Shown: piece by piece, positions 3,591 through 55,899 of the stretch
Position numbering within the stretch: the first letter of the stretch is position 1
How the letters are laid out: each line of letters starts with the position of its first letter
Translations under genes and position numbers: made by a program
Source: Dehalococcoidia bacterium
GTDB taxonomy: Bacteria > Chloroflexota > Dehalococcoidia > Lucifugimonadales > UBA3495
Direction of reading: 5' to 3'
Length of the DNA: 60,029 nt
Assembly (NCBI GenBank): GCA_030740155.1
Contig: JASLXV010000062.1
Location: forward strand, 1-60,029
The notes under the pieces: model-generated
What the model saw: only the letters and a program-made list of their open reading frames with translations
Told to the model about the DNA's origin: nothing
The model's database searches: none

Positions 3591-3665
3591 TGGTCGGGGT
3601 GGGGAGATTCGAACTCCCGGCTTCCACGTCCCGAACGTGGCGCCCTACCACTGGGCCACACCCCG
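3591..3665 (-). tRNA. tRNA-Pro(CGG)
   Basis: CGGGGTG acceptor, anticodon arm CCACG-TTCGGGA-CGTGG, GTTCGAATC T-loop, encoded CCA. Confidence 0.96.
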
Positions 3666-3995: not shown

Positions 3996-4994
3996 CTACA
4001 GCTTCAACTCGATGATCTCGAATTGAGACAGGTCGCTGCTTCCCAGTCCCAGCTCCTCGGCATGCTCATGCTGGCGGCGGACTATGGCTTCGTTGGCTGA
4101 AGTGAACGTGCTGTCGTGCTGCTTCATCAGCCGCATGGCGACCACATCGGCGGCGACCATGTCGCCGGTAATGATGAGGCGGTTCACCCCATCGATGATC
4201 TTGGTCTCCGCGCTTCTGGACGGTCCGAAGACCGCCTGCAGGGAGCGCACATCGGTAATGGTGAGTTCCGGGCGCACGGCGGAGGCGAACTCGGCCAGTT
4301 TACGGTCGAAATAGTCGCGGTTATCTTGGAGTGACGCGTGGGCGAGCCAGCGATGGAGGCCATAGACGGACCCGAAGTGGTTCTTGATCGCGCTGGTGAT
4401 CTGCCCAGCGAAGTGGCGCTTGAGGACGGGCAGGTTGATAATGACCGGAGCCTCCTGGAGCTGGCGGGCGATGCGCAAGCGAGGGCCTTCAGTCCTGCGG
4501 ACGCCGGGCTTTCGCAGGCGTTCCAGCATGGGGCTGCCCTCCATCCCAGGGAACCCCACATCAGGGTCCAGGTCTCCGTGCCAGGCGCGGTGCTCAACCA
4601 GGACGTAATGGCCGGCTTCCGGTGCGTGGGAGATCTGAATCTCCGTTCGGGGCAGGTCCGCCGGGTTGTAGATAAGGTCCAACTCGTTTCGGTGGTCCTC
4701 GTGCACCAGGATATGTTCGGCCCCGGCGGCCCGGCAATGGCGGGCCACGGCGCGTATCGTCTCGGGCGCGGTGATAGAGGGAAATGGGTCACGCTGGTTT
4801 GTATTGGGCTTGAGGACGACCTGGCGGTGAGCGCCAATGACGCGGCCCAGGCCGCCGATGGCCTCCAGTCCCGCATCCACCATGGCGTCGATATCCTCTC
4901 CCTCCACGATCACCAGGAGTGGCTTGCCGCCGGTGCCCAGCACCTGGTTGTCCCGGCCGCGCCGGGCCAGCGCGGTCTCCACCACTGTCGCCAT
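3996..4994 (-). CDS. DUF362 domain protein
   Basis: VVLKPN, INLPVLKRH...SAIKNHFG, DMVAAD, LGLG motifs. Confidence 0.85.
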   Translation of the reverse strand: MATVVETALARRGRDNQVLGTGGKPLLVIVEGEDIDAMVDAGLEAIGGLGRVIGAHRQVVLKPNTNQRDPFPSITAPETIRAVARHCRAAGAEHILVHEDHRNELDLIYNPADLPRTEIQISHAPEAGHYVLVEHRAWHGDLDPDVGFPGMEGSPMLERLRKPGVRRTEGPRLRIARQLQEAPVIINLPVLKRHFAGQITSAIKNHFGSVYGLHRWLAHASLQDNRDYFDRKLAEFASAVRPELTITDVRSLQAVFGPSRSAETKIIDGVNRLIITGDMVAADVVAMRLMKQHDSTFTSANEAIVRRQHEHAEELGLGSSDLSQFEIIELKL

Positions 4995-5160
4995 GGCACT
5001 CCTCCTCAGAGCCGGGTAGTGGGAGGATTATATCCGATTAGGGCGCCCACGGCGACACCGCTGTTTCACCCAGCCCAAACGGCGACTTGCCAACGACCGT
5101 AGGAATCTCGCATAATTGACCCGGAACCGGAAAGCCACGAACAGGGGGACATAGGCTGCT

Positions 5161-6009
5161 ATGGCGTCCGGCACGAAAACAGCGCAGACCACCGAAGCCA
5201 AGCTGGAAGAACTCCACCGCATCCTGGCCGGTATGGGCCGGGTAGCCATCGCCTATTCGGGCGGGGTGGATAGCACCTTTCTGCTGGCGGTGGCGAAAGA
5301 GGTCTTGAAAAGCGGTAACGTTCTGGCGGTGAATGCCGTCAGCCCGGTCTACTCGCAGCGGGAACAGGCCTTCGCCCAAGAGTTCGCCGCCAAACTGGGC
5401 GTGGAGTGCATCTCTTTATCCACCCGGGAGTTGGGGGACGAGCGCTTCGCCGTCAACCGCCCCGACCGGTGCTTCCACTGTAAGTCGGAGCTGTTCGGCC
5501 GGCTACAGGACGTTGCCGCGGAAAGGAAATTCCCATCCATCGCCGACGGAACCACGGCGAGTGATTTGGACGACTTCCGCCCTGGGATGCAGGCGCGAGA
5601 GACCTATGGAGTGCGGAGCCCTCTGCTGGAGGCCGGAATGGCCAAAGAGGAGATTCGCGCACTGTCCCAGGAGATGGGCCTTCCCACGTGGGATAAGCCG
5701 GCCATGGCTTGTCTGGCTTCCCGGTTCCCCTACGGCACCGGCATCACCGTCGAAGCCCTGCGCCAGATCGAAAAGGCGGAGGAGTACCTCTTTGACCGAG
5801 GCTACCGCCAGGTGCGGGTGCGCCACCACGGCCCGATTGCCCGCATCGAAATCATGGCCGACGAGATGGTCCGGCTGCTCGAAGAGGCCCCAAGCGTGGT
5901 GCAGCACCTGAAGAAGCTGGGTTACCGGTACGTGGCGCTGGACCTGCAGGGGTATCGGACCGGCAGCATGAACGAAGACGGAAGCATACCGCTGAGGCCC
6001 TTACAGTGA
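5161..6009 (+). CDS. larE: NPN biosynthesis ATP-dependent sulfur transferase LarE
   Basis: PP-loop AYSGGVDS, RCFHCK, DFRPG, WDKPAMACLASRFPYG, VRVRHHG, GYRTGSMN. Confidence 0.93.
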   Translation: MASGTKTAQTTEAKLEELHRILAGMGRVAIAYSGGVDSTFLLAVAKEVLKSGNVLAVNAVSPVYSQREQAFAQEFAAKLGVECISLSTRELGDERFAVNRPDRCFHCKSELFGRLQDVAAERKFPSIADGTTASDLDDFRPGMQARETYGVRSPLLEAGMAKEEIRALSQEMGLPTWDKPAMACLASRFPYGTGITVEALRQIEKAEEYLFDRGYRQVRVRHHGPIARIEIMADEMVRLLEEAPSVVQHLKKLGYRYVALDLQGYRTGSMNEDGSIPLRPLQ

Positions 6010-6689
6010 CGCCGGCGGACGCTTCGGACCCCGCCGTGGTCGACCTGGGTTATGCCCGGGTAGACGCACAGCGCAGCAAACGCCAGGGCATGCCGGAGGC
6101 GGTCCTCTGCTTGGGCAAGACCCCTTCCCAGGTAGCCGGGATTCTTGAAGTGTTGGTTGAGTCCGAGGGGACCGGTATTGCCACCAAGGCGAACCGCACC
6201 GTTTACCGGGCGGTTCGGACCAAATTCCCCGAAGCTATCTATCACGACACCGCGAAGCTCATTCACGTGGGGAAAGACCTGGCGTCACAGCCCGCCGGTA
6301 TCATCGTCGTATCCGCCGGCACCTCGGACATACCGATGGCCGAGGAGGCGGCGATCACCGCGTCTATCCTGGGGCATCCAGTGGACCGGCTCTTCGACGT
6401 CGGCGTCGCCGGCCTGCAGCGGCTTCTCTCGCAGACCGAGCGCCTCCGGCAAGCTGCGGCGGTGGTGGTGGTGGCGGGTATGGATGGTGCGCTGCCCAGC
6501 GTGGTGGCCGGCCTGGTGGACAAGCCGGTGATCGCCGTACCGACCTCGAACGGATATGGCGCGTCTTTTAAAGGGTTGTCGGCGCTGCTGTCGATGCTGA
6601 ACAGCTGTGTCCCCGGGGTCGCCGTGGTCAACATCGACAACGGTTTCGGAGCAGCCGCGGTGGCCCACCGCATGACTCGGGTCGCCTGA
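6006..6689 (+). CDS. larB: NPN biosynthesis carboxylase/hydrolase LarB
   Basis: SAGTSD, DVGVAGL, VAGMDGALPSVV, VPTSNGYG, SMLNSC, VVNIDNGFGAA; 4-nt overlap with larE. Confidence 0.93.
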   Translation: MTPADASDPAVVDLGYARVDAQRSKRQGMPEAVLCLGKTPSQVAGILEVLVESEGTGIATKANRTVYRAVRTKFPEAIYHDTAKLIHVGKDLASQPAGIIVVSAGTSDIPMAEEAAITASILGHPVDRLFDVGVAGLQRLLSQTERLRQAAAVVVVAGMDGALPSVVAGLVDKPVIAVPTSNGYGASFKGLSALLSMLNSCVPGVAVVNIDNGFGAAAVAHRMTRVA

Positions 6690-6755
6690 CCGTTCGTACC
6701 GAACCGCCGCACCGGGAGGGGTGACCGATGCCGGCCGTCATCGGTGTATCGGGTT

Positions 6756-7291
6756 GGGCGCCCACAAGGGGCGCCCCTACGGGTGCCCTGGACGAACTTG
6801 GACCCTTCCCACCGTGGTTAGCGATTTGTAGGCGCCGACCACGTCGCCCAATGTAGGGGCAACCCTTGTGGTTGCCTCCTGGCCGGGCGGCCCGACGTCC
6901 GCTGTCATGGCCGCGTCGGATTGGGCGCCCACGAGGGGCGCCCCTACGGGTGGCACGGACCATCATGGGCCCTTGATTACCGCGATTGCGGATTCTCTCG
7001 GTCCAGTTCCCAGTGCTGGGGATTATTGACGATGTACTCGCGGATCCGGCCGAGGGACGTTTCGTCGCGAATGACGTGTTCGAAATAGTTTCGTTGCCAT
7101 AACCTGCCCGGAAACGCCTGCCACCCCCTCGTCTTGACGCCGCGCACATATCCCAAAGTGGTTAACGATTTATATGCACCGACCACATCACCCAATGTAG
7201 GGGCAACCCTTGTGGTCGCCCCTTGTCCGGTCGCCCCGACGCCGGTCGTTGTGGGGGTATCAGATTGGGCTCCCACAAGGGGCGCCCCTAG
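6756..7291. repeat. Five GTAG-type REP palindromes (GTAGGGGCRnCCCTyGTGGnnGCCC) at 6756-6780, 6853-6877, 6923-6947, 7197-7221, 7267-7291
   Basis: GTAG tetranucleotide plus imperfect palindrome, arranged as inverted pairs, next to and inside a RAYT. Confidence 0.85.
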
Positions 7292-7564
7292 GGGTGCCGT
7301 CCACACGATGATGCCGTGGATGTGATTTGGCATGACGACGAACGCGTCGACACTAATGCCCAGGAACTGGACCGGCAACTCGTCCCAGACCGCTTGCACC
7401 ATCCGCCCGGCGTCGTTGGGAAACAACTTGCCTTCCACTATCTCGCCAAACAGACACACCCGCCCCTGCGTGCAGATGGTAACAAAATAGGCTCCTGGCC
7501 CCGCGTAATCATACCCGGGAAGGCGGATGGAGCGGCGGTGATGTCGTTCAGGGTCGAAGCTCAC
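6977..7564 (-). mobile_element. REP-associated tyrosine transposase (RAYT, IS200/Y1 HUH family)
   Basis: RRSIRLPGYDY, YFVTICT, FVVMPNHIHGI (HUH), WQRNYFEHVIR, YIVNNP. Confidence 0.92.
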
Positions 7565-9402
7565 GCCCCGGCGAACGCCAGGTCCAACTCCTCAAGCTTC
7601 TCTTTGGTGGGCCTGCCGTCTTCGCCCCACCCCCGAAGCTGCCGGTACTCCCGGAGCTGCTCTTCGACGTTGGGCGCTCGCTTGGCGGTGCCGCCTTCGC
7701 CCAGGGGCTCCAGAAGCCGCGCCGGGAGCCGGTCATCGGCGCCATCCAGGCTACAACGCAGGTTGTACATTCGTTGCAGATTGACGATGCGCTCGCCGGC
7801 CCGCAAGACCTCCGCCGAATTGTAGTCGAAACCGGTGACCGAGGACAGCGCCTCCGCCAGGTGCAGCGGCGCCAGCGTCAGGCCCGGATAGAGGCACATG
7901 ACCATGGAACCGAGAACACTGGTCAGGTCTTGGCCCACCTTGGCCGTCAGCCCCTTCCCGGAGCGGTCGAACCGGTCCTGGCGGTAAACCACCCCAGCCT
8001 CGGGCATGGAGGAGTACATCTCGAAAATGGATGGCGCTCCGGTGAGGTCGCAGGCCGGGTTCGGGCCGGTGGCGTAGGTTGCGCCCAGGCTGAAGTAAGC
8101 CCGGGGGTCGTACATCGGTATCTCCAACCCCTTTACGTGCATGGAAAAGGCTTCGCTGGCGGCCCCGACCTTTTTCGAGGTCGCTCTGACCCCCTGACTC
8201 AGCAGCTCGCCGATGCCCTCACAGGTAGCGATTTTCTCGACAAGCTCGATGATGGTGTCAGAATTGCCCCAGGTCAGGTCCAGGCCGTCCACGTCTCGCG
8301 CAGTGAAGAAGCCACGCTCCTGGGCCTCCATGGCGAAGGCAATAACGGCGCCCACCGATACCGTGTCGAGGCCGGCTCTCTTGCACAGATCATCGGCCTT
8401 GCAGACCGACTCCAGGTTGTCGTTCAAGCATAGCGAGCCCAGCGCGGCCAGGGTTTCGTACTCCGGCCCGGCCCCCTCCATCTTGTGCTTTCCCCCGGCT
8501 ATCTTGACCCAGCGGGTGCAGCGGACGGGACAGTTCAAGCACGATTCGTGGGGCTGCAGGATGGTGTCGGCCATCTTCTTGCCGCCCAGGTTGATGCACC
8601 CGTCTTTCCAGAGGCCCACGCGCCAGTTCTGCGTCGGAACCGCGCCCTTTTGCCACCCGGTGTCCATGTGGAAAGCGGTACCCCATTTGAAGAGCATGGC
8701 CATGCGCCGGTTGCCGCCGATGATCTGGCCAATGCGTCCGGCTACCTGATTGAATCCGGTTTCCTCTGCGATCGGGACCGCCTTGGCGCCCTTGACGGCG
8801 ATGGCCTTCAGGTTTTTGGAGCCCATCACCGCCCCGATGCCGCCTCGGCCAACGGCCCTGCCGCCGTCACCCACCATGCAGGCCAGAGGGACTTTGCCCT
8901 CACCCGCCGGGCCGATACCCACCACCTGGGCTTCGGGGCCGGCGAACTGGTCCCGGATCTTCTCCTCCAGGGCGATGGCATCGGCCCCCCAGAGCCCGGT
9001 GGCGTCCTTGATCTCGGCGCCACGGTCGCTGACGTCCAGCCATACCGGCTTGAGTGAGGTCCCTTCGACAATGATGCCGTCAAAACCGCTTTGTTTCAGC
9101 GATGCTCCCCAGTGACCGGCGAGGCTGTCATGGGTCAGCAGACCCGTCAGGGGCGACCTGGTGACCACGGCAAAGCCGCCTGAGGCCGGAAAAGCCGTTC
9201 CCACCAGGGGGCCGGCCATGAAGAGGAGCTTGTTGTCCGGGCCGAGGGGGTCGGCGCTGGCGGGCACCTCGTCAAATAGGATACGGGTGCCCAGGCCGAT
9301 GCCGCCGATATACTGCCGGGCCATGGTCTCATCCAGGGGCTCTTCTGCCACCCGGCCCGAACTCAAGTTTACCCGGAGTAGTTTGCCTTGGTATCCACCC
9401 AC
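7561..9402 (-). CDS. Aldehyde:ferredoxin oxidoreductase family (W/Mo-bis-pterin), divergent
   Basis: GRGGIGAVMGSKNLKAI, CLNCPVRC, GPEYET, GLDTVS, HVKGLEIPMYDPR, DDRLPARL, RGW. Confidence 0.92.
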   Translation of the reverse strand: MGGYQGKLLRVNLSSGRVAEEPLDETMARQYIGGIGLGTRILFDEVPASADPLGPDNKLLFMAGPLVGTAFPASGGFAVVTRSPLTGLLTHDSLAGHWGASLKQSGFDGIIVEGTSLKPVWLDVSDRGAEIKDATGLWGADAIALEEKIRDQFAGPEAQVVGIGPAGEGKVPLACMVGDGGRAVGRGGIGAVMGSKNLKAIAVKGAKAVPIAEETGFNQVAGRIGQIIGGNRRMAMLFKWGTAFHMDTGWQKGAVPTQNWRVGLWKDGCINLGGKKMADTILQPHESCLNCPVRCTRWVKIAGGKHKMEGAGPEYETLAALGSLCLNDNLESVCKADDLCKRAGLDTVSVGAVIAFAMEAQERGFFTARDVDGLDLTWGNSDTIIELVEKIATCEGIGELLSQGVRATSKKVGAASEAFSMHVKGLEIPMYDPRAYFSLGATYATGPNPACDLTGAPSIFEMYSSMPEAGVVYRQDRFDRSGKGLTAKVGQDLTSVLGSMVMCLYPGLTLAPLHLAEALSSVTGFDYNSAEVLRAGERIVNLQRMYNLRCSLDGADDRLPARLLEPLGEGGTAKRAPNVEEQLREYRQLRGWGEDGRPTKEKLEELDLAFAGA

Positions 9403-9406
9403 GTGA

Positions 9407-10720
9407 TCACCTCAATGTAGCGAGATCGACATTCTCCGTCCGCTTGAATCCCCGCTCCGGGACGACAGGGTCTTTCTCGAAGAGCTTGGCAAACCGCTGC
9501 CGCACTGGACGAGGGTCAAACTGGAAACGGTAATATGTGGAGTCGGGCACCGTTGCCTCCAGAATCTCGTAGTCGGTGGTTCCCAGGCCATTGCGCACGG
9601 CGGAGTTGATTTGCAGGCTGTCGCTGGCGCCCACCGCCGAGGAGATGGCGGCGAACTTGGGAACGCCGGGGGCCAGAACGCCGGCTTCGTGGGCCTTGGA
9701 CCCAACAACCCCCGGAGAGTCGTTGACCATGTCCCGGCAGGCGGTGTCGATGGCTACGGGGTCGCGGCTGGCGAAGACGCCGATGTTGGGAACGAAGGCC
9801 CGGTCGCTCCACATGACACAGTCGCACCCGGGGGAGGCGTCGATGGCCATGTTGATGAAGCCCACCTTATCGGAGCCCACCGTTTTAACCACTGCCAGGG
9901 CACCGTCTGCCATGGCGGCGGCGGCGCCATCGATGTTGCCCAACGGCCGGGTCAACACCCCACAGGTAACTACGTTGTTGCACGCCTGGCAGTTGATGCA
10001 GGCCTCGGCGCGCCAGTCTATCGTGTGGTCGGTGACGTTGAACAGCCCCAAGGGGCAGCAGTCTTCACAGATCTGCCACTGGGCACAGGCGTGGCCGATG
10101 CACAGGTGGGGGTTGAACTCCGAGAGGTGCAGTCCCCACTTGGGGTGCTTCGACTGGTGCACGTTGAGCTTGCCCCGCTTTGACTGCCCGCCGATGCCCA
10201 GGTTCTTGATGGCCCCGCCAAACACACCGGTCATGTGGCCCTTGAAATGGCTGAGAACGATAACAACGTCGGCCATTGCCAAAGCCTTGGCGATGTAGGT
10301 CTCTTTGATAACCGTGCCTTCGGGCAGGTCGACGAGTTGGTCGTCGGTGCCGAAGAAGCCATCGGCGACGATGAAAGGGCAACCCAACGTTGCGGAGCTG
10401 TACCCGTTCCGCTCCGCCGTAAGCAGCTCGTCCATGGCGGTCACCCTTCCCGCGAAAGGGTTGTAGGTCAGAGTCGTGGTGTCGCATACGAAGGGCCGGC
10501 CACCCAGGCTCTTGATCTTGTCCGCCAGGGCTCGCGCGTAGACCGGCCGGAGATAGCCGGTGTTGTTGTATTCCCCGCAATGAAGCTTGATGGCCACGAC
10601 ATCGTAGGGTTTTATCATCTCACCCAGTCCGGCGGCGTCGAAGACGGCCAGCATCTTTGCCACCAGGGTGCTGTCGGGGCCTGTTGAGCGGTCGCTCATG
10701 AAATAGACCTTAGATGCCAT
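9407..10720 (-). CDS. DUF362 protein with ferredoxin-like Fe-S insert
   Basis: VAIKLHCGE, SHFKGH...GGAIKNLG, Cys clusters (CIGHACAQWQICEDCCP; CINCQAC), PGCDC, DPVAID. Confidence 0.9.
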   Translation of the reverse strand: MASKVYFMSDRSTGPDSTLVAKMLAVFDAAGLGEMIKPYDVVAIKLHCGEYNNTGYLRPVYARALADKIKSLGGRPFVCDTTTLTYNPFAGRVTAMDELLTAERNGYSSATLGCPFIVADGFFGTDDQLVDLPEGTVIKETYIAKALAMADVVIVLSHFKGHMTGVFGGAIKNLGIGGQSKRGKLNVHQSKHPKWGLHLSEFNPHLCIGHACAQWQICEDCCPLGLFNVTDHTIDWRAEACINCQACNNVVTCGVLTRPLGNIDGAAAAMADGALAVVKTVGSDKVGFINMAIDASPGCDCVMWSDRAFVPNIGVFASRDPVAIDTACRDMVNDSPGVVGSKAHEAGVLAPGVPKFAAISSAVGASDSLQINSAVRNGLGTTDYEILEATVPDSTYYRFQFDPRPVRQRFAKLFEKDPVVPERGFKRTENVDLATLR

Positions 10721-11247: not shown

Positions 11248-12078
11248 ATGTTCTACGACACTTCACGGTTCCAAGAGAAGCTCGAAGGTGGCCGAGACGA
11301 CCGGACCCACGGGATCGTGGTGATCACCCCATCGGAGTCCCGCCGGCTCCTCGCCAAGGGTGTGCTGGCGCTGCCGGAGGTGCAACGAAGCTTGAAGGAC
11401 GGACTCTTCGTGATCTGCAGGGGAATCACCACGGCTTTCGTCGCGGAAGAGGTGCTCGGCGACACCCTAAACAAGCCCAACTGCACCGCCGGAATAGTCA
11501 CCGATGGCCGGCTGGCGTCCACGCTGCCGGAGGAGGGGCAGGGCCCCTGGGTGTTCCGGGACGGCGACCTGACGCCGGACGGCTTCGACCAGGCCCTAAA
11601 GGACCTGACGGCGACGGATGTTGTGGTGAAGGGCGTGAACGCGGTAGACGCCGAGGGGAACGTGGGAGTAATCGCCGCCAATTGGTTCGGTGGGACCATC
11701 GGCGCCGTGTGGCCGACGGTAACGGCCCGGGGAACCAACTTCGTCATTCCGGTCGGCCTCGAAAAGCTCATTCCCTCGGTCAATGAGGCAGTCCAGAAGT
11801 GCGGGCAAGGAATGTTCAAGTATGTTATGGGGGCCAAGATCGGCCTGATGCCGGTGATGCAAGGGCTCGTGGTGACGGAGATCGAGGCCTTGGCGATGTT
11901 AACCGGCGTCAGCGCCACCCACGTCGCCTCGGGGGGCGTAGGCGGCTCCGAGGGCAGCGTTATCATCAGCCTGGAGGGCAGCGATGAAACGGTGAAGCGG
12001 GCCTTCGAGCTGGTGAAGAGCATCAAGGGCGAGCCGCCGGTCCCGCAACCCAACCTGCTGCCTGCGCTTATCTCGTAG
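11248..12078 (+). CDS. Conserved hypothetical protein
   Basis: GAGGAG RBS, GC3-rich codons, motifs ITPSESRRLLAKG, GITTAFVAEE, KGVNAVD, PVGLEKL, ASGGVGGSEG. Confidence 0.8.
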   Translation: MFYDTSRFQEKLEGGRDDRTHGIVVITPSESRRLLAKGVLALPEVQRSLKDGLFVICRGITTAFVAEEVLGDTLNKPNCTAGIVTDGRLASTLPEEGQGPWVFRDGDLTPDGFDQALKDLTATDVVVKGVNAVDAEGNVGVIAANWFGGTIGAVWPTVTARGTNFVIPVGLEKLIPSVNEAVQKCGQGMFKYVMGAKIGLMPVMQGLVVTEIEALAMLTGVSATHVASGGVGGSEGSVIISLEGSDETVKRAFELVKSIKGEPPVPQPNLLPALIS

Positions 12079-20981: not shown

Positions 20982-22253
20982 CTAGGCCGACCGGCCGGCC
21001 ATCTGGGGCTTGGCCCACGCCATCGACGAGACCGGCATCTGGAGTGGCGCGTAGGGGTACAGGGCCACTCTGGTGCCGGGCCCATGCCGGCGCTCCAAAT
21101 CCGCCAACACTTCGTCCCAGGTCCGGTGCCAGTCGACCTTGTCCGGCGGGCCGATCATTTCCCGGTCGTTCCAGGATAGGTTGGGGGCAAAGACGATGGT
21201 TCGGTTGGCCTTCCCGAGGTTGCCGGCTATACGACGGGGAGTGTAGCCCCGGCCGCCGTAGTCGGTTCCGAAGCGGCCGGCGTACTGGTGCAGACACTGT
21301 CCATCGTAGGAGTGGGAGATTAGCACCACGTCGCCGCCCTCCTTCAAGGAGCTGGGCACCACCCAGGTGGCCCGGTTGGTCTGGCACTCGTCCGGGTAGC
21401 TGTTCGCCACCACCACGTCGGCTTCCTCCACGGTATCGGTGACGTATGTCTTGCGCGCCACCTCCACGCCGGCCCGGTGCTCGGCCACGAAGTCACCCGC
21501 GAACATCGCGACCACCTCGCGGCGGTTGTTCAGTACCGAGTCAACCTTGAAGTGCAGGCCGGCCAGGCGCGTCGCTTCTTCGATGTCCAGCCGGAACACG
21601 TTGTCGTCCACCCGGCCCAGGGCGGAGTTCTCCGTGCTGTGCTTGTGGTGGTGGTTGACGGTCTCGATGCCGGCGATGCCGGGCAGGACCAACTTCCCGC
21701 CACCGCCGAAGCCCGCGTGGGGGTGGGGGAAGAGGCTGCCTATGCCCAGCCGCAGGTCGCAGGAGGCAAATTCCCGGTTTACCCACATGGGTGTTCCCCG
21801 GCTGGTGGTCCCGACGTTGACCAGGTTCTCCCAGATGCAATGGTTGTAAACGGGGAACCGCTCCACTATATCCCGGCCCAGTTTGGCCACCAGCTCGGGA
21901 AAGAGCAGGGGACGATGGGTGCCGGGGGCGCACACGAAACGTATTTGATCGTCGGTGATGCCGCCGGCGTGCAGCTCCTCCAGCACGAAGGGAACGATGC
22001 GGTAAGCCGGTGTGGGTTTGGGTATGTCGTCGAAGAGGATGCACACCTGCTTCTTGCCCTTGGCGAGTTCGCTGAGCCGGGGTGATCCGATGGGGGACTG
22101 CAGTGCCTGACGCATCTCCTCGTCGGAAAGGGCCGGCTGGTCGTGGCCGGCCATCAGGCACTCCGTCACCTGCCAGTTGTCGGGAAAAGTCAGTCCGATC
22201 TCATTATCCCCGTAAAAAGCATTGACTCGAACCTTGAATTCTTGCGGTGCCAT
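20982..22253 (-). CDS. larA: Lactate racemase (LarA) superfamily nickel-pincer enzyme
   Basis: SPIGSPRL, FDDIPKPTP, PGTHR, GTTSRGTP, PHPHAGFGGGGKLVLPG, NHHH; substrate unknown. Confidence 0.9.
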   Translation of the reverse strand: MAPQEFKVRVNAFYGDNEIGLTFPDNWQVTECLMAGHDQPALSDEEMRQALQSPIGSPRLSELAKGKKQVCILFDDIPKPTPAYRIVPFVLEELHAGGITDDQIRFVCAPGTHRPLLFPELVAKLGRDIVERFPVYNHCIWENLVNVGTTSRGTPMWVNREFASCDLRLGIGSLFPHPHAGFGGGGKLVLPGIAGIETVNHHHKHSTENSALGRVDDNVFRLDIEEATRLAGLHFKVDSVLNNRREVVAMFAGDFVAEHRAGVEVARKTYVTDTVEEADVVVANSYPDECQTNRATWVVPSSLKEGGDVVLISHSYDGQCLHQYAGRFGTDYGGRGYTPRRIAGNLGKANRTIVFAPNLSWNDREMIGPPDKVDWHRTWDEVLADLERRHGPGTRVALYPYAPLQMPVSSMAWAKPQMAGRSA

Positions 22254-29912: not shown

Positions 29913-30267
29913 AGCGCCCCCCGGCTTTCATGCCGGCACGTATCCTTTGGCTGGGTGTATTATAGCCCTCTCCGCCGGATGCCACGATGAGTGGAGCTAC
30001 TGAACGACCCGGGGTGGAAATTGGTGCGAACGCCATCACAGGAGGATAGCTTGGCCGGGACGCCACGGATGCGATAGAAATCGAGACCCAGGGCGAACTC
30101 GATGCTCCGGCCGGCCGTATTCACCCGACGGGTTTGGCAGCGCCCGATTGAGGGACCCTCAGGGCCGGCGTGCCGCCAGCCGCTTGACGGGCCCCGCCTT
30201 ATGTTGACTGCCTCGAAGGTGTATGGTATAGGTAGATTTGAACCCGGCACGAGGGAGGTGTAGGCGC

Positions 30268-30693
30268 ATGGCCGATGAGCAGTTGAAACAGTTCGACTAC
30301 CAAACAGCGGAAATTGGCGAGGAGTTGGGGTCTTACGAGTACGTTTTGAGTCAAGAGACCCTGGACAACTTCCGAAAAGCGGTCGATGATCCCGACGCGC
30401 GGTACCCCACCATTGCAGTCAAGCACGACGGCGTCGCCTTCCACATGGTATACACCGACGCCACCGGCTCGGTTAATGCCGGGTCCGAAGTCGAGTTCCA
30501 CAACCCGCCCGTTCCGGGCAAGACCATCAAGGTTACCGGCCGAATCGCCGACAAGTACTCGCGGCGCGATAAGCCCTACCTGGTCATTGAAGCCACCGCC
30601 GTTGACGAAGACGGGCGTCTGCTGGAGAGGATGCGCACCTACCAGATGAAGAAACCGGACGAGGTTGGGAAGAAGTGGGGGCCGGGAGGCTAG
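30268..30693 (+). CDS. MaoC-like hot-dog fold protein
   Basis: GGAGG RBS, VNAGSEVEFHNP, GRIADKYSRR, DEDG. Confidence 0.75.
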   Translation: MADEQLKQFDYQTAEIGEELGSYEYVLSQETLDNFRKAVDDPDARYPTIAVKHDGVAFHMVYTDATGSVNAGSEVEFHNPPVPGKTIKVTGRIADKYSRRDKPYLVIEATAVDEDGRLLERMRTYQMKKPDEVGKKWGPGG

Positions 30694-31154
30694 AGCGCGG
30701 CCGTCCGGTCCCAACGCCATCCAAGCAGATCACCGGGACCGGGTCCACATTTTGGAGCCTCGCGGCGCCCACGTTCAGCGGGGCATCGATAGAAGCCCGG
30801 AGATGACGCGCGATAAGGCTGAGCACCATATTCTTGGTCTCAGCCTTATTCTTACGCCAAAGACCCGCCGAGGGAACTCAGCATTGGCGCCTGAGTTTCA
30901 AGCTCGCTTGGGGCGCCTGTACCTGTCTTCCCCGGTAGCCGGCGCTTCCAATACCCTTCGTGGTGAGCTTGTCGAACCACCAGCCCCCGCTCTTCGAAGG
31001 TGCTTTGCCTTAAGACCGTCACTCCAAGGAGCGAAGCAGCACCGTCATTCCGAGGAGCGAAGCGACGAGGAATCTGCTGTGGGGCTCGTCCTTGGCAGCC
31101 CGGACCCACCACCCCAGACCCCTCGCTTCACTCGGGGTGACATATTCCGGATCC

Positions 31155-32231
31155 CTACTGCCACTGCCAGTCGATCTTCCTGGTTACCACTGCGCCGTGG
31201 GCGCTGTCGATAAACAGGCAGTTGGCGCCGGGTGAAGGCCAGCCGCCGCTGACCAGGATGCTGAGGAACTCGGGGGACGTTATCGCCGGGATCAGGGCGT
31301 CGTCGTTATCGAAGTCCACCAGGTCCGCCCACCAGTAGGATTTGGTGGCGCTCCCGCCGGTCTTTTTCAAATCGCGGACTGTGCGCTGGGCCTTCTCGAT
31401 CATGGCGTCCCGCACTTGCTTCTTGCTCCAGCCGGCGTCGGCGAACACCTGGGACGCCAGCGGGTTCATCACCGACAGTTTGTGCGTATCCTCATGCATG
31501 TGGCCCAGGCGGTCGAAGCCACGGGCGAACCTGGTGACCAGGTCGTCCAACGATTGCTGCAGACCGGCGCCGGTACCGATCTGCTCGTGTCTTCCGGCGG
31601 GGAACATGGTGATGGCGCTATCCTCCGGCTTAAGGCCGGCCTCGCTGACGTGGAACTGCTCCCACGGGTTGCCGTCATCGGGTGGCCGTTCCGCCAGGAG
31701 GAAGCAATACTTCCCCAGATGGCCGAAGGTGGCGTGGGAGAGGCGCTCGGCCCGGCCCAAGCCGCAGTTCCACAGGATCAGGGCGATGGCCCTGCCGATG
31801 GTGCCGTTGACCCGAGTGCCGTCGCCGGAGGCCGCTCCCCGGTCGTAGTTGAGGCCCAAATGCTTGACGACCGGGCCGGAGATTATGGCGCAGGGCACGG
31901 CCCCCGCGGCACTGGTCTGAACCTGGCTCAGTTGAAACTCGTCCGCCAGCATCGCCTGGACCGCCGCGATCACAATGGGCACGTACTCCGGCTTGCACCC
32001 CGCCATGGCGCAGTTGAGGGCGACCTCCTCCATGGTGGCCACGCCCTCGCCCGGGGGGATGACGCCCACAACTTCCGAGGAGTCGCGTCCCACATAGTTG
32101 AGGATTTCGCCAACCCGCTTCTCTGTTGGCGGGAGCACCGGCAGCCCGTCGCTCCACCCCTCCTGGTACGCCAGGTTGGCGAAATCATCGATATCCATTC
32201 CCTGGAAGGTTTTCGTGGTTAGCTTTGCCAT
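31155..32231 (-). CDS. UGSC-partner domain protein, type B copy 2
   Basis: GWSDGLPVLPPT, NCAMAGC, NGTIGRA; homologous to the C-terminal part of 37814-39481. Confidence 0.85.
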   Translation of the reverse strand: MAKLTTKTFQGMDIDDFANLAYQEGWSDGLPVLPPTEKRVGEILNYVGRDSSEVVGVIPPGEGVATMEEVALNCAMAGCKPEYVPIVIAAVQAMLADEFQLSQVQTSAAGAVPCAIISGPVVKHLGLNYDRGAASGDGTRVNGTIGRAIALILWNCGLGRAERLSHATFGHLGKYCFLLAERPPDDGNPWEQFHVSEAGLKPEDSAITMFPAGRHEQIGTGAGLQQSLDDLVTRFARGFDRLGHMHEDTHKLSVMNPLASQVFADAGWSKKQVRDAMIEKAQRTVRDLKKTGGSATKSYWWADLVDFDNDDALIPAITSPEFLSILVSGGWPSPGANCLFIDSAHGAVVTRKIDWQWQ

Positions 32232-32236
32232 GATAC

Positions 32237-33283
32237 CTACTCCCACTTCCATTCAATCTTGCGAGTCGCCTGTTGGCCGTGGGCGGTCACCAGGCGGAGA
32301 CAGTAGCCGGGGGACGCCGACCAGCCGCCCGTGACCAGGACGTGGAGTTCCTCCCGGACCGGCCTAGGCCCCGTTGCGCTGGGCATCGTAAGCTGGCCGG
32401 TATAGTCCTTCCGTTCGTGGAGGGTCTCCGTGGTGACGGCTCGGAACCAGGGGTTGGCCCGCTCCATGATCGCGTCGCGGAAGTCCTGCTTGCTCCATCC
32501 AGCTTCGGCGAAGGCGTTGGCGATGTGGGGGTTCAGCACCAACATCTTCTGGAAGCTCCCCAGGGTGATGGAGTCGGCCAGGACGTCCACCTTGTCGGCC
32601 AGCGAGTTGCCGCCGACCCCGGCGCTGATTTGGTCCTGGGTGCGGGAGGGATACATGGTGACGGCGCTGTCTTCGGGGTCGAGGTCCGCCGCCGTGACGT
32701 GAAACTGCTCCCACGGGTTGCCGTCGTCCGGGGGCCGCTCCGCCATCACGTAGGAGATGCGCCCGATATGGCCGAAGGTCGAAGCTGACAGCGCACCGGG
32801 ACGGGACTGGGCGATATTCCACAGCACCAGCCGGATGGCCCGGCCAATCGACGCGTTCACCCGGTTGCCGCTTCCGGCCACGGCGCCTTCACCGTAGTGC
32901 ATACCAAGCTCCTTGACCACCGGGCCGGAGATGATGGCGGCGGGTGCGGGGCCGCCCGTGGTGCTATTGACCCGCATGAGTTCGAACTCTTCCGCCAGCA
33001 TCGCCTGGATCGCCGTGATCACCACCGGGACGTACTCCGGCTTGCACCCGGCCATGGCGCAATTGATGGCGATCTTTTCGATGGTGGCGATGCCCTCGGC
33101 GGGGGAGAGGACCCCGACCACCTCCCCGGGGTCTTTCCCCAGATAGTCGATCATCGCGGTCACCGCCTTCTCGGTGGGAGGGAACACCGGCAAGCCGTCG
33201 GTCCACCCTTTGCTGTAGGCCAGATCGGTGAACTCGTCGACGTCCATCGGTTCATAGGTATTCGACACGAGAGTCGCGGCCAT
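32237..33283 (-). CDS. UGSC-partner domain protein, type A copy 2
   Basis: GWTDGLPVFPPT, EKIAINCAMAGC, NASIGRA. Confidence 0.85.
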   Translation of the reverse strand: MAATLVSNTYEPMDVDEFTDLAYSKGWTDGLPVFPPTEKAVTAMIDYLGKDPGEVVGVLSPAEGIATIEKIAINCAMAGCKPEYVPVVITAIQAMLAEEFELMRVNSTTGGPAPAAIISGPVVKELGMHYGEGAVAGSGNRVNASIGRAIRLVLWNIAQSRPGALSASTFGHIGRISYVMAERPPDDGNPWEQFHVTAADLDPEDSAVTMYPSRTQDQISAGVGGNSLADKVDVLADSITLGSFQKMLVLNPHIANAFAEAGWSKQDFRDAIMERANPWFRAVTTETLHERKDYTGQLTMPSATGPRPVREELHVLVTGGWSASPGYCLRLVTAHGQQATRKIEWKWE

Positions 33284-33762
33284 GGGTCCCCTCCTTGTGG
33301 AGCCTATCCGGTAACTTTATTGCCGTGGTTCGACAAGCTCACCACGAGCGGAAAATATCAATCTCAACACGAGCCCGCCAACACCGTTTGCACCGGGCCG
33401 GTTGAAAGTGGCGGCGAGAGTGCTGCCGGGCAAAGAGCATCATCTCCGCGGGATTGGGCGGCATCCCCTTGCCAAGATCGTCATCCCGGCGAAGGCCGGA
33501 ATCCAGAGAAGCGTTGGCTGGATCCCGGCCTTCGCCGGGATGACGGACTGGGTATCAAGCCGATCGAGGTTACGGGCCGGTTATCAATCCATCGGTGACG
33601 GGCCGTGTATCAAGCCAAATGCAACCCAGTAGGCTAGTACTCAGTCAACCTATTGCTGATGGTTGTCATTCAGAGCGAAGCGAAGAATCTCGTTGTTACG
33701 CTGAGATTCTTGTCGCTGCGCTCTTTAGAATGACATCCTGCCAAAACGAGGTTGACTGACCG

Positions 33763-34449
33763 CTAGTAGGGCCTCGGAATCTTCCCAACTTCCTTCAGTT
33801 TTTCGAGGGTGAAGGCGCCGGATTGGCACACTTCGATTGTCTTACGCTCGAAATCGGCTATGGTGCTCACCATGTCCGGAATCTTGTCGGCTATCTCGAA
33901 CGGAATTGAAGTAACCCCATGCTTGTCACCGAGCAGCAGGTCTCCGGTGGAAACCGTGAGTCCGCCGACCGTGACGGGGATGCCGATATCCACCAGGTGC
34001 ACGTAGGCGTGAGACACTGAAACATCTTTGGCGAAGAACTGAAAACCCAGGTCGTGCACTTCGTCCAAGTCTCGCACCGTGCCGTCGGTGGCGACGCACA
34101 CCGCTCCCAGCGCCTTGTGAATATTGCCCTGGACTTCGCCCCAAAAGGCGCCAAGGGGAGGATTGTCGATATCGTGGAGAACGATGAACCTTGGCTCGGG
34201 GACCGACGCTATCAGGTCGAACCAATCGTTTCTGGAAACGTTGTGCCCTTCCTGCCGGACCGCGCTGATAACGCCGGTAACCGCATACCCGATCACCGGG
34301 GGTAGATCGCTGAAGATAGACCTGATCTCCGGCAGCATGAATCCATGGTTCTTGGGCCGGACATTGAACCCTTCGATGGCGTTACAAATGCTTGGGCCAT
34401 CGATCACGGACAACGCTTTGAGAGTGGCCTGACTAATGGTCTGATACAT
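33763..34449 (-). CDS. RraA/HMG-aldolase family protein
   Basis: GYAVT, AFWGEV, TDGTVRD, GDLLLGDKHGV. Confidence 0.9.
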   Translation of the reverse strand: MYQTISQATLKALSVIDGPSICNAIEGFNVRPKNHGFMLPEIRSIFSDLPPVIGYAVTGVISAVRQEGHNVSRNDWFDLIASVPEPRFIVLHDIDNPPLGAFWGEVQGNIHKALGAVCVATDGTVRDLDEVHDLGFQFFAKDVSVSHAYVHLVDIGIPVTVGGLTVSTGDLLLGDKHGVTSIPFEIADKIPDMVSTIADFERKTIEVCQSGAFTLEKLKEVGKIPRPY

Positions 34450-34493
34450 GAATCATCTCCCTTAAACCGGTTTCACCATTGATAATGATCTGG

Positions 34494-35570
34494 TTACCGC
34501 CACTGCCAGTCGATCTTACGGGTTACCATCGCGCCATGGGCGCTGGTTATGAAGAGGCAGTTGCTGCTGGGGGACGGCCATCCGCCGCTTACCAGGATGC
34601 GAAGGTGCTCCGGGGTTGGCACGGCGGGCACCAGGGCATCGTCGTCATCGAGGTCCACCAGGCCGGCCCACCAGTAGGACGTGGCGCCGCTTCCGCCGGT
34701 CTGTTTCAAGTCGCGGACCGAGCGCCGGGCCTGCTCGATCATGGCGTCCCGCAGCTGGGTCTTGCTCCAGCCGGCCTCGGCGAACAGTTGGGCCGCCAGA
34801 GGGTTCACGGCGAACAGCTTTTGGGAGGCCGTATGCATGTGTCCCAAACGGTCGAAGCCCCGGGCGAAAGCACCCACCACCTCATCCAGTGACTGGTCGA
34901 GACCGGAGTAGGTGGGGAACTGCTCGTGGCTTCCGCCGGGGAACATGGTGATGGCGCTGTCTTCGGGATCGAGGTCCGCCGCCGTGACGTGAAACTGCTC
35001 CCAGGGGTTGCCGTCGTCCGGCGGGCGTTCCGCCAGCAGATAGCAATACTTCCCCAGGTGGCCGAAGGTGGCGTGGGACAGCCGCCCGCCCCGCGCCCGG
35101 CCGTGGTTCCACAGGACCAGCGCGATGGCCCGGCCGATGGTGCCGTTGGCCCGGCTGCCGTCCCCCGAGACCGCTCCCCGGTCGTAGTTGAAACCAAGTT
35201 GCTTGACCACGGGACCGGATATGATGGCGCAGGGTACCGCGCCCACCGCGCTGGTCTGGACCTGGGCCAAGTCGAACTCGTCCGCGAGCATCGCCTGGAT
35301 CGCCGCGATCACGATGGGCACGTACTCCGGCTTGCACCCCGCCATGGCGCAGTTGATGGCGACCCCTTCAATCGTGGCCACGCCCTCACCCGGAGGAATG
35401 ACGCCCACAATCTCCGAAGGGTCCCGTTCCAGATAGGCGAGGATGGCGCCTACCCGCTGCTCCGTGGGGGGGAGTACCGGCAGCCCGTCGCTCCAGCCCT
35501 CCCGAAAGGCCAGGTTGGTGAACTCGTCGATGTCCATCCCCTGGAAGGTCTTGGTGGTTAGCTTTGCCAT
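34494..35570 (-). CDS. UGSC-partner domain protein, type B copy 1
   Basis: Close paralogue of 31155-32231 (both 358 aa). Confidence 0.85.
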   Translation of the reverse strand: MAKLTTKTFQGMDIDEFTNLAFREGWSDGLPVLPPTEQRVGAILAYLERDPSEIVGVIPPGEGVATIEGVAINCAMAGCKPEYVPIVIAAIQAMLADEFDLAQVQTSAVGAVPCAIISGPVVKQLGFNYDRGAVSGDGSRANGTIGRAIALVLWNHGRARGGRLSHATFGHLGKYCYLLAERPPDDGNPWEQFHVTAADLDPEDSAITMFPGGSHEQFPTYSGLDQSLDEVVGAFARGFDRLGHMHTASQKLFAVNPLAAQLFAEAGWSKTQLRDAMIEQARRSVRDLKQTGGSGATSYWWAGLVDLDDDDALVPAVPTPEHLRILVSGGWPSPSSNCLFITSAHGAMVTRKIDWQWR

Positions 35571-35577
35571 GGAACCG

Positions 35578-36624
35578 TTACTCCCAAGTCCAATCGATTT
35601 TGCGGGTTGCCTGCTGGCCGTGGGAGGAGGTCAATCGGAGACAGTATCCGGGGGCGGCCGACCAGCCTCCCGTGACCAGAATATGAAGCTCTTCCCTAAC
35701 CGTCCTCGGTCCGGCCGCGCTGGGCAGCGTTAGCTGGCCCTGATAGTCACTCCGCTCGTGGACGGCTTCCGTGGTGACGTGGCTGCGCCAGGGGACGGCA
35801 CGGGCCATGATGGCGTCTCTGAAGTCCTTCTTGGTCCAGCCGGCGCCGGCGAAGGCGTTGGCCACGTGGGGGTTCACCACCAGCATCTTCTGGGAGGTCC
35901 CCAGGGTGATGGAGTCGGCCAGAACGGCAATCTTGTTTTCCAACGTGTTGTTCCCCACCCCATCGCTGATCTGGTCCTGGGTACGGGAGGGAAACATGGT
36001 CACGGCGCTATCCTCGGTACCGAGGTCCACCGCCGTGACGTGGAACTGCTCCCACGGGTTGCCGTCGTCCGGGGGCCGCTCCGCCATCACGTACGAGTAA
36101 CGCCCGATGTGCCCGAAAGTTGATGCCGACAGGGCGCCGGGACGAGACTGGGCGATATTCCACAACACGAGCCGGATGGCCCGACCGATGGTGCCGTTCA
36201 CCCGGCTGCCGCTCCCGCCAACGGTGCCCTCACCGTAGTCGAAGCCCAGCCGTTTGACCACCGGGCCGGAAATGACGGCGGCAGGAGCGGGACCGCCCGT
36301 GGTGCTGTTGACCCGCAGCAGCTCGAACTCGTCCGCCAGCATGGCCTGGATCGCGGTGATCACCACCGGGACGTACTCCGGTTTGCACCCCGCCATGGCG
36401 CAGTTGATGGCGATCTTCTCGATGGTGGCTATGCCCTCCGCGGGAGGGAGTACGCCGATCACCTTACCAGGGCCTATGCCCAGGTAGTCGAGGATCGCGG
36501 TCACCGCTTTCTCGGTGGGAGGAAGCACCGGCAGCCCATCGGTCCACCCCTCCCGGTAGGCCAACTCCGTGAACTCGTCCACGTCCATCGGCTCGTAAGT
36601 TTTCGACACCAGCGTCGGCGCCAT
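35578..36624 (-). CDS. UGSC-partner domain protein, type A copy 1
   Basis: Close paralogue of 32237-33283 (both 348 aa); AAGGAGG RBS before ATG 36624. Confidence 0.85.
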   Translation of the reverse strand: MAPTLVSKTYEPMDVDEFTELAYREGWTDGLPVLPPTEKAVTAILDYLGIGPGKVIGVLPPAEGIATIEKIAINCAMAGCKPEYVPVVITAIQAMLADEFELLRVNSTTGGPAPAAVISGPVVKRLGFDYGEGTVGGSGSRVNGTIGRAIRLVLWNIAQSRPGALSASTFGHIGRYSYVMAERPPDDGNPWEQFHVTAVDLGTEDSAVTMFPSRTQDQISDGVGNNTLENKIAVLADSITLGTSQKMLVVNPHVANAFAGAGWTKKDFRDAIMARAVPWRSHVTTEAVHERSDYQGQLTLPSAAGPRTVREELHILVTGGWSAAPGYCLRLTSSHGQQATRKIDWTWE

Positions 36625-37103
36625 GGGATCCCTCCTTAGATGTGCCAGCCCGGTAAACAGTGACACGCAGGCTAAGGCTAATGCGTTGGGCCGCCTGCAC
36701 CTAAATCCCCCTGTATCCCCCTTTAATAAAGGGGGACTTGAAGGAGCTATTTTTCGCGGGGTTGGCCATCCAGTTATGGTTCCGCGAATCAGTCACGTTG
36801 GACTGATCACTGGAGCCCGCGTTGCCGGCAATCTGTTTCAGCGGCCTGCCGGGTTCATGTATAACGCCAAACCGCTCTCCGCCCGGTTTCGGGGCCGGAG
36901 AGCGGCGGTTCATCGCGTCATTTGGCCTGGGCCGGGTTCCGGAGTGCGGCTAGCACCACTTCGATATAGTTGGTGGATGAAAGTGACCCCTGATCTAACC
37001 TTTCCCCTTCGCCACGGAGAAGGAACAGTCCACTCCCCCTTACGCCCGGGCAGATAAGGGAGGGGGTTCTCGGGCAGACCGTCAAGACTAGCTGGGCACG
37101 CTC

Positions 37104-54857: not shown

Positions 54858-54939
54858 TACGACGGTCTCCTTCTGTAACGAGCGGGTCTGTTTCCATCAA
54901 AAAGCCACTGGTAAATGGTCGTTACGGCCGCTAGGCCGG

Positions 54940-55899
54940 CTATCCGCCTACCTGGACCTGGAGTCCCTCCCGGCGGCACAGGTCCGCCAGGGAGGCCATG
55001 TGTTCCCCGGTCTGAGTCTCTTTGGCCCGGAGCGAGTAGGAGCGGCCGATCCACTCATACTTGGCCCCCGCAGCGCCATTGTAGGGCAAGAGCACGATCC
55101 TGTCGACGCCGATTCCGGCGCCAAATCTGGCGATGGACCGGATTTGCTCCTTGCCGTCGTTTATGCCGGGGATGCACGGCACCCGGATTTGAATCTCGTG
55201 GCCCGAAGCGGCAAGCTGCTCCAGGTTTCGCAGAATCAGGTCGTTGGGCACCCCGGCGTGGCGACGGTGGGAGGCGGAGTCGATGAACTTCAAATCGTAC
55301 AGAAGCAGGTCGGCGACGCTTGCCAGTTCCGCCATCGCCTCCCAGCGGGCGTAGCCGGTGGTCTCCAGCGCGGTGTGGATGCCACGCTCCTTGCAGGCCA
55401 GCAGAAAGTTATAGGAGAACTCCGGCTGCCTTGCGGGCTCACCGCCGCTCAGCGTGACCCCGCCCCCCGAGCTTCGGAAGTAAGGGAGGTCCCGCTCGAC
55501 CTCCAACGCCAGTTCGCCGACTGTGATCGGCGTGCCCGCCAACCTGAGGGCGCCGGGGTAGCACACCTCCACGCACTTTCCGCACGCGGTACATCTGCTA
55601 CGGTCCAGGACCGCCGCTTCCTGTCCTCCGTGCCTGCCGCTGGTCAGCGCACCTTCCGGGCAGACCTCCAGGCACAGCCAGCAGCCGGTACACCGCTGGA
55701 CCTGGTACAGGATATCGGGATGATTGAGCTGGGACTCGGGGCTATGACACCACACGCAGGCCAGCGGGCAGCCCTTCAGGAATACGGCGGTGCGTATTCC
55801 GGGGCCGTCGTGGGAGGCGAATTTGTCGACGTCGAGCAGCAGCCCTTGGATTGTCAGGTCGGCGCTGCGGGAGGCGACGCTCCTCTCAGGGACGGACAT
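54940..55899 (-). CDS. Glycyl-radical activating enzyme (radical SAM with ferredoxin insert)
   Basis: HDGPGIRT, GCPLACVWCHSPE, two CxxCxxCxxxCP-type motifs, GGVTLSGGEP. Confidence 0.95.
   Translation of the reverse strand: MSVPERSVASRSADLTIQGLLLDVDKFASHDGPGIRTAVFLKGCPLACVWCHSPESQLNHPDILYQVQRCTGCWLCLEVCPEGALTSGRHGGQEAAVLDRSRCTACGKCVEVCYPGALRLAGTPITVGELALEVERDLPYFRSSGGGVTLSGGEPARQPEFSYNFLLACKERGIHTALETTGYARWEAMAELASVADLLLYDLKFIDSASHRRHAGVPNDLILRNLEQLAASGHEIQIRVPCIPGINDGKEQIRSIARFGAGIGVDRIVLLPYNGAAGAKYEWIGRSYSLRAKETQTGEHMASLADLCRREGLQVQVGG

Follow-up and report, generated by a model that had tools for sequence, protein, structure and literature searches.

Do the two DUF362 genes that flank larE and larB in this contig encode enzymes that use the nickel-pincer cofactor (NPN)? 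The genes larB, larC, and larE occur without larA in roughly 15% of surveyed genomes, and in the part of PMC11796402 consulted the user of their cofactor is described as an open question. The window analyzed here is a 60,029-nucleotide stretch from a Dehalococcoidia bacterium (contig JASLXV010000062.1), and the features under discussion are as follows.

3996-4994, minus strand: DUF362a (PF04015, E 6e-28, 98.7 bits against a Pfam gathering cut-off of 24)
4338..4415, minus strand: codons of H194-x9-K204-x14-H219 in DUF362a, invariant in the homologue alignments
5161-6009, plus strand: larE, NPN-synthesis sulfur transferase (TIGR00268, E 3e-99, 331 bits, cut-off 150)
6006-6689, plus strand: larB, NPN-synthesis carboxylase/hydrolase (NF033503, E 8e-82, 274 bits, cut-off 175)
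6718-7564, minus strand: REP-like repeats and a REP-associated tyrosine transposase-like ORF (6977-7564), between larB and the AOR gene
7561-9402, minus strand: aldehyde:ferredoxin oxidoreductase (AOR) family gene (Pfam AFOR_N/C)
9407-10720, minus strand: DUF362b (PF04015, E 1e-41, 143.7 bits against a Pfam gathering cut-off of 24)
10157..10237, minus strand: codons of H162-x9-K172-x15-H188 in DUF362b, invariant in 119/119 homologues
20982-22253, minus strand: LarA homologue, 423 amino acids from the ATG at 22253 (Lar_N, E 3e-52)

The ORF and family calls agree with the sequence-only reading that larE-larB is flanked by two DUF362 genes, a divergent one upstream and another 2.7 kb downstream. 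DUF362a and larE form a divergent pair with 166 bp between them, larE and larB overlap by 4 bp, and DUF362b lies on the opposite strand 2.7 kb beyond larB, with the REP-type transposase and the AOR gene in between. The AOR gene starts 4 bp downstream of DUF362b, and the two are likely to be co-transcribed. The larC gene is outside the window, on contig C107 of the same genome, where it lies ~1.9 kb past a third DUF362 gene; larB, larC, and larE are thus all encoded by the host genome. The REP-like repeats (three 90-nt copies with internal palindromes) overlap the transposase-like ORF, which scores under its family cut-off; together they are probably an insertion outside the lar/DUF362 system. 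A tRNA-Pro(CGG) gene is located just downstream of DUF362a (3591-3665), and at least eleven AOR-family matches were found on eight contigs of the host genome.

The motifs reported for the three proteins were recovered as described. Motif searches identified H162-x9-K172-x15-H188 in DUF362b and H194-x9-K204-x14-H219 in DUF362a, and the LarA homologue, numbered from the ATG at 22253 (where a ribosome-binding site is present), contains H177-x9-K187-x15-H203. In alignment to 5HUQ, the latter triad falls on H174, K184, and H200 of Lactobacillus plantarum LarA, which are the catalytic histidine, the tether lysine, and the nickel ligand, respectively (PMC7583248 and PMC12611868, in the parts consulted). 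The pattern H-x9-K-x14/15-H is present in 16 of the 1166 non-overlapping ORFs of 300 to 500 amino acids in the genome, three of which are DUF362a, DUF362b, and LarA, and chance would give it to ~1% of ORFs of this size (13/1163 after removal of the three genes). All aligned homologues of DUF362b (119/119) and DUF362a (120/120) keep the triad, and its residues are among the nine columns invariant in 28 diverse DUF362 proteins (K62, K192, H194, K204, G208, H219, D248, A281, and D283). In a family of ~13,000 clusters (50% identity level, matches at E ≤ 1e-10), each triad residue was found in 149/150 representatives, a count that leans high because the representatives were ranked by a profile containing the triad. 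Degenerate, triad-less DUF362 proteins also occur in larC-less Chloroflexota, one type having 240 amino acids and another 420 to 430 amino acids with S/R/H.

Profile alignments place the DUF362 triad in register on H177, K187, and H203 of the window LarA, at weak scores (E 0.016 to 1e-4; profile-profile probabilities of 57% and 18%) and, in one alignment, with the third histidine of DUF362a gap-offset from its LarA equivalent. Judged from sequence, both DUF362 proteins carry putative equivalents of the tether lysine (K184), the nickel-ligand histidine (H200), and the catalytic histidine (H174). The second base of LarA, H108, has no equivalent in DUF362b or in the DUF362 family consensus.

DUF362a is a stand-alone protein of 332 amino acids with one cysteine, and no Fe-S domain or Tat motif was seen in its sequence. 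Its H101, kept in 119/120 homologues and in 5/6 relatives at 35-39% identity, sits in the loop corresponding to that of LarA H108, a placement for which the alignment register is uncertain. DUF362b is a 437-amino-acid protein with T-L-T-Y at the H108 loop, an invariant C299-D300-C301, and a Cys-rich insert (approximately residues 195-262) that matches ferredoxins and is a candidate 2[4Fe-4S] domain. The predicted structures of both have the LarA N-domain fold: 205-229 residues of the DUF362 models align to LarA chains of 401-452 residues, a fold-level match given as aligned residue ranges. In Pfam and NCBIfam profile searches, neither protein matched Lar_N (PF09861) or the LarA NCBIfam models, and the LarA_C domain, with its Y294, Q295, and K298, is absent from both (no LarA_C Pfam match). 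As modelled, DUF362a and DUF362b are therefore structural homologues of the LarA cofactor domain and not LarA-family members.

This relationship also sets the sense in which the proteins can be called a new class. According to the part of PMC11770544 consulted, DUF362 shares clan CL0471 with the LarA superfamily (lactate racemase and 2-hydroxy-acid racemases/epimerases; Lar_N PF09861 plus LarA_C PF21113; 5HUQ, 9EIA, 7S91, 4NAR, and 9Q3J), so that any novelty would lie in function only. The two groups are alike in predicted N-terminal fold, in the H174/K184/H200 equivalents, and in co-occurrence with larBCE. However, they share only 10-16% identity, and DUF362 proteins lack the C-terminal substrate domain, have no family-wide equivalent of H108, D72, or R75, and contain the additional invariant K62 and K192. 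The ferredoxin inserts or fusions, Tat signals, and polyferredoxin or AOR partners of DUF362 proteins also have no counterpart in LarA and point to net electron transfer. A precedent for a single catalytic histidine is provided by LarA homologues with an NPN-loaded LarA fold (9Q3J and 9Q3K; PMC12611868, in part); these have lost H174 and keep the C-terminal domain, whereas in DUF362 it is H108 that is mostly missing, and the equivalent of H174 is retained. Because the predicted LarA cofactor-binding fold is accompanied by the anchoring residues, DUF362a and DUF362b likely belong to a large putative class of nickel-pincer enzymes.

Co-occurrence of DUF362 with the lar genes in genomes lacking larA, the genomic check proposed for this idea, was found for larC in Chloroflexota, Spirochaetota, and Pseudomonadota. 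In 200 Chloroflexota genomes, DUF362 and LarA were counted at E 1e-15 or better, a threshold that drops 31 genomes with weak DUF362 and 21 with weak LarA matches. The larC gene was present in 52/62 genomes with DUF362 versus 51/138 others (and in 76/89 LarA genomes); among the LarA-less genomes, it was present in 7/11 with DUF362 and 20/100 without. In the 151 Spirochaetota, DUF362 accompanies larC in all 50 genomes that have it, including 26 that lack larA, and LarA in all 32 LarA-bearing genomes; larC was found in 0/53 genomes without DUF362. For the 341 Pseudomonadota, the corresponding larC counts were 35/35 with DUF362 versus 9/306, and larA was found in 0/34 tested DUF362-positive genomes. 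These counts are not independent, because the genomes are kin and those positive in Pseudomonadota seem to form a single clade. They are also uncontrolled for the NPAD-dependent ornithine cyclodeaminase (Desguin 2025, cited in PMC13524815), which may be the user behind some of the orphan larBCE sets. According to that citation, this is a nickel-pincer user outside LarA that was found by lar-gene context but, unlike DUF362, belongs to another family and has a non-covalent dinucleotide cofactor.

The strongest and cleanest case for NPN use comes from operons. Seven Pseudomonadota regions were fetched, five of them chosen for having DUF362 and larC on one contig. Four of the seven, all from larA-less genomes (L327, L329, L330, and L331 in G486, G510, G526, and G506, respectively), encode a Tat-DUF362 protein, a membrane polyferredoxin, LarC, LarB, and LarE in a single run; one reaches larB at the contig end, and two contain only DUF362 and the polyferredoxin. 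Comparable clusters also occur outside this phylum: L159 is from a Chloroflexota genome without larA, and L305 is from a spirochaete in which larA is present as well.

The distribution of DUF362 extends beyond that of the NPN synthesis genes. Both larB and larC are absent from 48/98 DUF362-bearing Spirochaetota, 40 of which also lack larA; LarA-bearing Spirochaetota lack larC less often (8/32). In the larBC-less spirochaetes, some of whose triad proteins are on long or single contigs, the triad was intact in all 30 proteins examined (20/20 of the C-terminal-ferredoxin type and 10/10 of the DUF362b type), as it was in five DUF362 proteins from larC-less Chloroflexota. Bacteroides thetaiotaomicron, from the control panel, likewise has DUF362 without larB and larC. 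The triad alone is thus no proof of NPN use; in such organisms the cofactor may be imported or replaced by a simpler one, or the site may reflect an older function. If that older function were general, the triad would bind a plain pyridine nucleotide, a nickel-free precursor, or a simple metal ion, larE and larB would serve only the LarA at 21-22 kb, and the neighborhood would be a loose cluster of redox and cofactor genes. The LarA gene in the same window, the poorly conserved local gene order, and the invariant K62 and K192, which LarA lacks, are in line with this explanation. We nevertheless consider it unlikely, given the operons of DUF362, polyferredoxin, larC, larB, and larE in larA-less genomes and the failure to find larC without DUF362 in any of the 151 Spirochaetota. 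In addition, the triad is lost in eight DUF362-like proteins of larC-less Chloroflexota (L147-L151, L153, L155, and L156), which were picked for that setting, the selection being confined to larC-less genomes.

The further proposal that the two DUF362 proteins are clients of the adjacent larB and larE did not gain from the neighborhood. DUF362a adjoins larE in 4/80 related metagenome loci (5.5 kb long on average), three at 100% identity and one at 85%, and since the LarA of this genome already explains larB and larE, adjacency does not show client status. What stands of the sequence-only reading is the LarA-like character of the DUF362 proteins, to which the predicted fold, the register of the triad, and the larC co-occurrence without larA all contribute. 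DUF362b has larB, larC, or larE in the flank of 15/80 related loci, all from Chloroflexota and in three arrangements, including one orthologue (L132) directly divergent from larE-larC-larB-larA; this proximity looks like more than chance but is lineage-bound. An AOR gene follows DUF362b within 70 nt in 11/80 loci, a pairing that spans Chloroflexota, Nitrospinota, Desulfobacteraceae, and an Asgard archaeon. The usual partner, however, is an NAD-dependent epimerase/SDR (following in 52/80 loci), of which no close orthologue was found in the host genome. A small protein without a Pfam match follows DUF362b orthologues in 27/80 loci; both it and the epimerase/SDR are missing at the window locus (examples elsewhere are L126:11172-12649, L085:13427-14968, and L132:11376-12684). 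The window is consequently a fair, but not the best, example of a family-level candidate.

The two window proteins also separate in the DUF362 tree. DUF362a joins the Tat clade of the lar operons with weak support (SH-aLRT 81), whereas DUF362b groups at 100 with proteins of larBC-less spirochaetes (three placed, one clade). This topology would suit a mixed family in which the Tat/polyferredoxin clade, and perhaps DUF362a, uses NPN, whereas the clade with the Fe-S insert, including DUF362b, needs no larBCE; in that case the window would contain only one client among its two DUF362 genes. We regard such a division as more improbable still than a general older use of the site, as the triad is identical in both clades, the three lar-proximal arrangements of DUF362b orthologues include the divergent one, and larC was present in 44/50 genomes tested for close DUF362b orthologues (from 80 loci). 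The larC figure is confounded by larA, which is carried by 19/24 orthologue genomes tested for it, as it is by the host.

Our preferred reading, to which we give a probability of roughly 0.6, is that both DUF362 proteins are loaded with the NPN that the LarB, LarE, and LarC of this genome produce, and that they employ it in hydride transfer rather than in LarA-type racemization. By our judgement, and not by computation, some DUF362 subfamily very likely binds NPN, DUF362a likely does so, and DUF362b probably does, with rather less assurance; any named substrate ranks lower. In both proteins, the NPN-binding domain of lactate racemase would be present without the substrate-capping C-terminal domain. 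With residue roles carried over from LarA (PMC7583248 and PMC12611868, in part), K172 and K204 would form the thioamide tether to the cofactor, H188 and H219 would be the fourth nickel ligand, and H162 and H194 would act as the base that deprotonates the substrate hydroxyl while hydride moves to C4 of the cofactor. With its putative Fe-S clusters but neither a second base nor a capping domain, DUF362b would most likely be a one-way dehydrogenase or reductase with electrons leaving through the clusters, and might, for example, make or use an aldehyde for the co-transcribed AOR. DUF362a, which keeps H101 and has no Fe-S outlet for electrons, is more likely a redox-neutral isomerase or disproportionase. 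Thus, one of the two proteins is probably wired to iron-sulfur electron transfer.

Binding without turnover, with DUF362 as a carrier, store, or maturation factor for LarA-like enzymes, would be consistent with the missing substrate-binding domain and with the frequent co-occurrence of the two families, as in the LarA-bearing Spirochaetota. We hold it to be highly improbable: the catalytic-histidine equivalent is invariant, DUF362 proteins are accompanied by ferredoxin domains, Tat signals, and membrane polyferredoxins, and they occur in genomes without any LarA to serve.

That NPN does more than racemize was reported for NphT, an NPN-dependent hydride transferase that catalyzes intermolecular hydride transfer (PMC13524815, in the part consulted). 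Like DUF362, NphT adjoins larBCE in the absence of larA, and it has a His/Lys pair and a covalent +450 Da adduct. Unlike DUF362 and LarA, it has an unrelated TIM-barrel (aldo-keto reductase) fold and disproportionates sugars. That study set aside LarA-homologous proteins, and our literature search (the supplements of PMC13524815 being outside its scope) turned up no publication in which DUF362 is proposed to bind NPN. Two unrelated user families were reported in 2025-2026; DUF362 is far larger and is present in lar operons of larA-less genomes. As a family of NPN enzymes, DUF362 is a real, well-supported candidate. Tentatively, at somewhat less than even odds, it could also prove to be the principal client that orphan larBCE genes lack, and the first known class of oxidoreductases based on the nickel pincer. 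The substrate, an alcohol or hydroxy acid, would then give up a hydride to the pincer, from which electrons would pass singly to Fe-S clusters; this would take place in the cytoplasm, next to AOR, for DUF362b and in the periplasm, via the membrane polyferredoxin, for the Tat clade. In organisms without larB and larC, DUF362 proteins would depend on scavenged cofactor or on a simpler relative of it. Should the Fe-S-linked members prove real, the nickel pincer would be a flavin-like converter between two-electron and one-electron chemistry, a role not found in the literature consulted on NPN enzymes. The window offers two contrasting DUF362 members and a LarA control within one genome.

The window LarA carries D76, H113, H177, K187, and H203 and represents a known kind of larBCE client. 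It is divergent: R75 and K298 of LarA are replaced by Lys and Arg, respectively, no LarA_C match was found in Pfam, and its scores fall under the cut-offs of all LarA subfamily models. The third DUF362 protein (H-x9-K-x14-H) is encoded after a flippase-like gene and a UbiA-family prenyltransferase gene (C25:125602-127774 and C107:1-3762; L002, L004, and L006) and might epimerize a lipid-linked sugar with the aid of NPN. The two contigs overlap (end of C25, start of C107) with 91% identity over 820 nt, a near-duplicate that may reflect strain mixing (contamination, 7.65%). A 276-amino-acid ORF divergent from DUF362b (11248-12078) has no Pfam or NCBIfam match; it has two paralogues in the genome (C25 and C68) and is kept beside DUF362b in L067. 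Five minus-strand ORFs of 173-365 amino acids without a Pfam or NCBIfam match surround an RraA-like gene (30199-36666), and a glycyl-radical enzyme and its activase, under the cut-off of every named subfamily, are encoded at 52398-55899.
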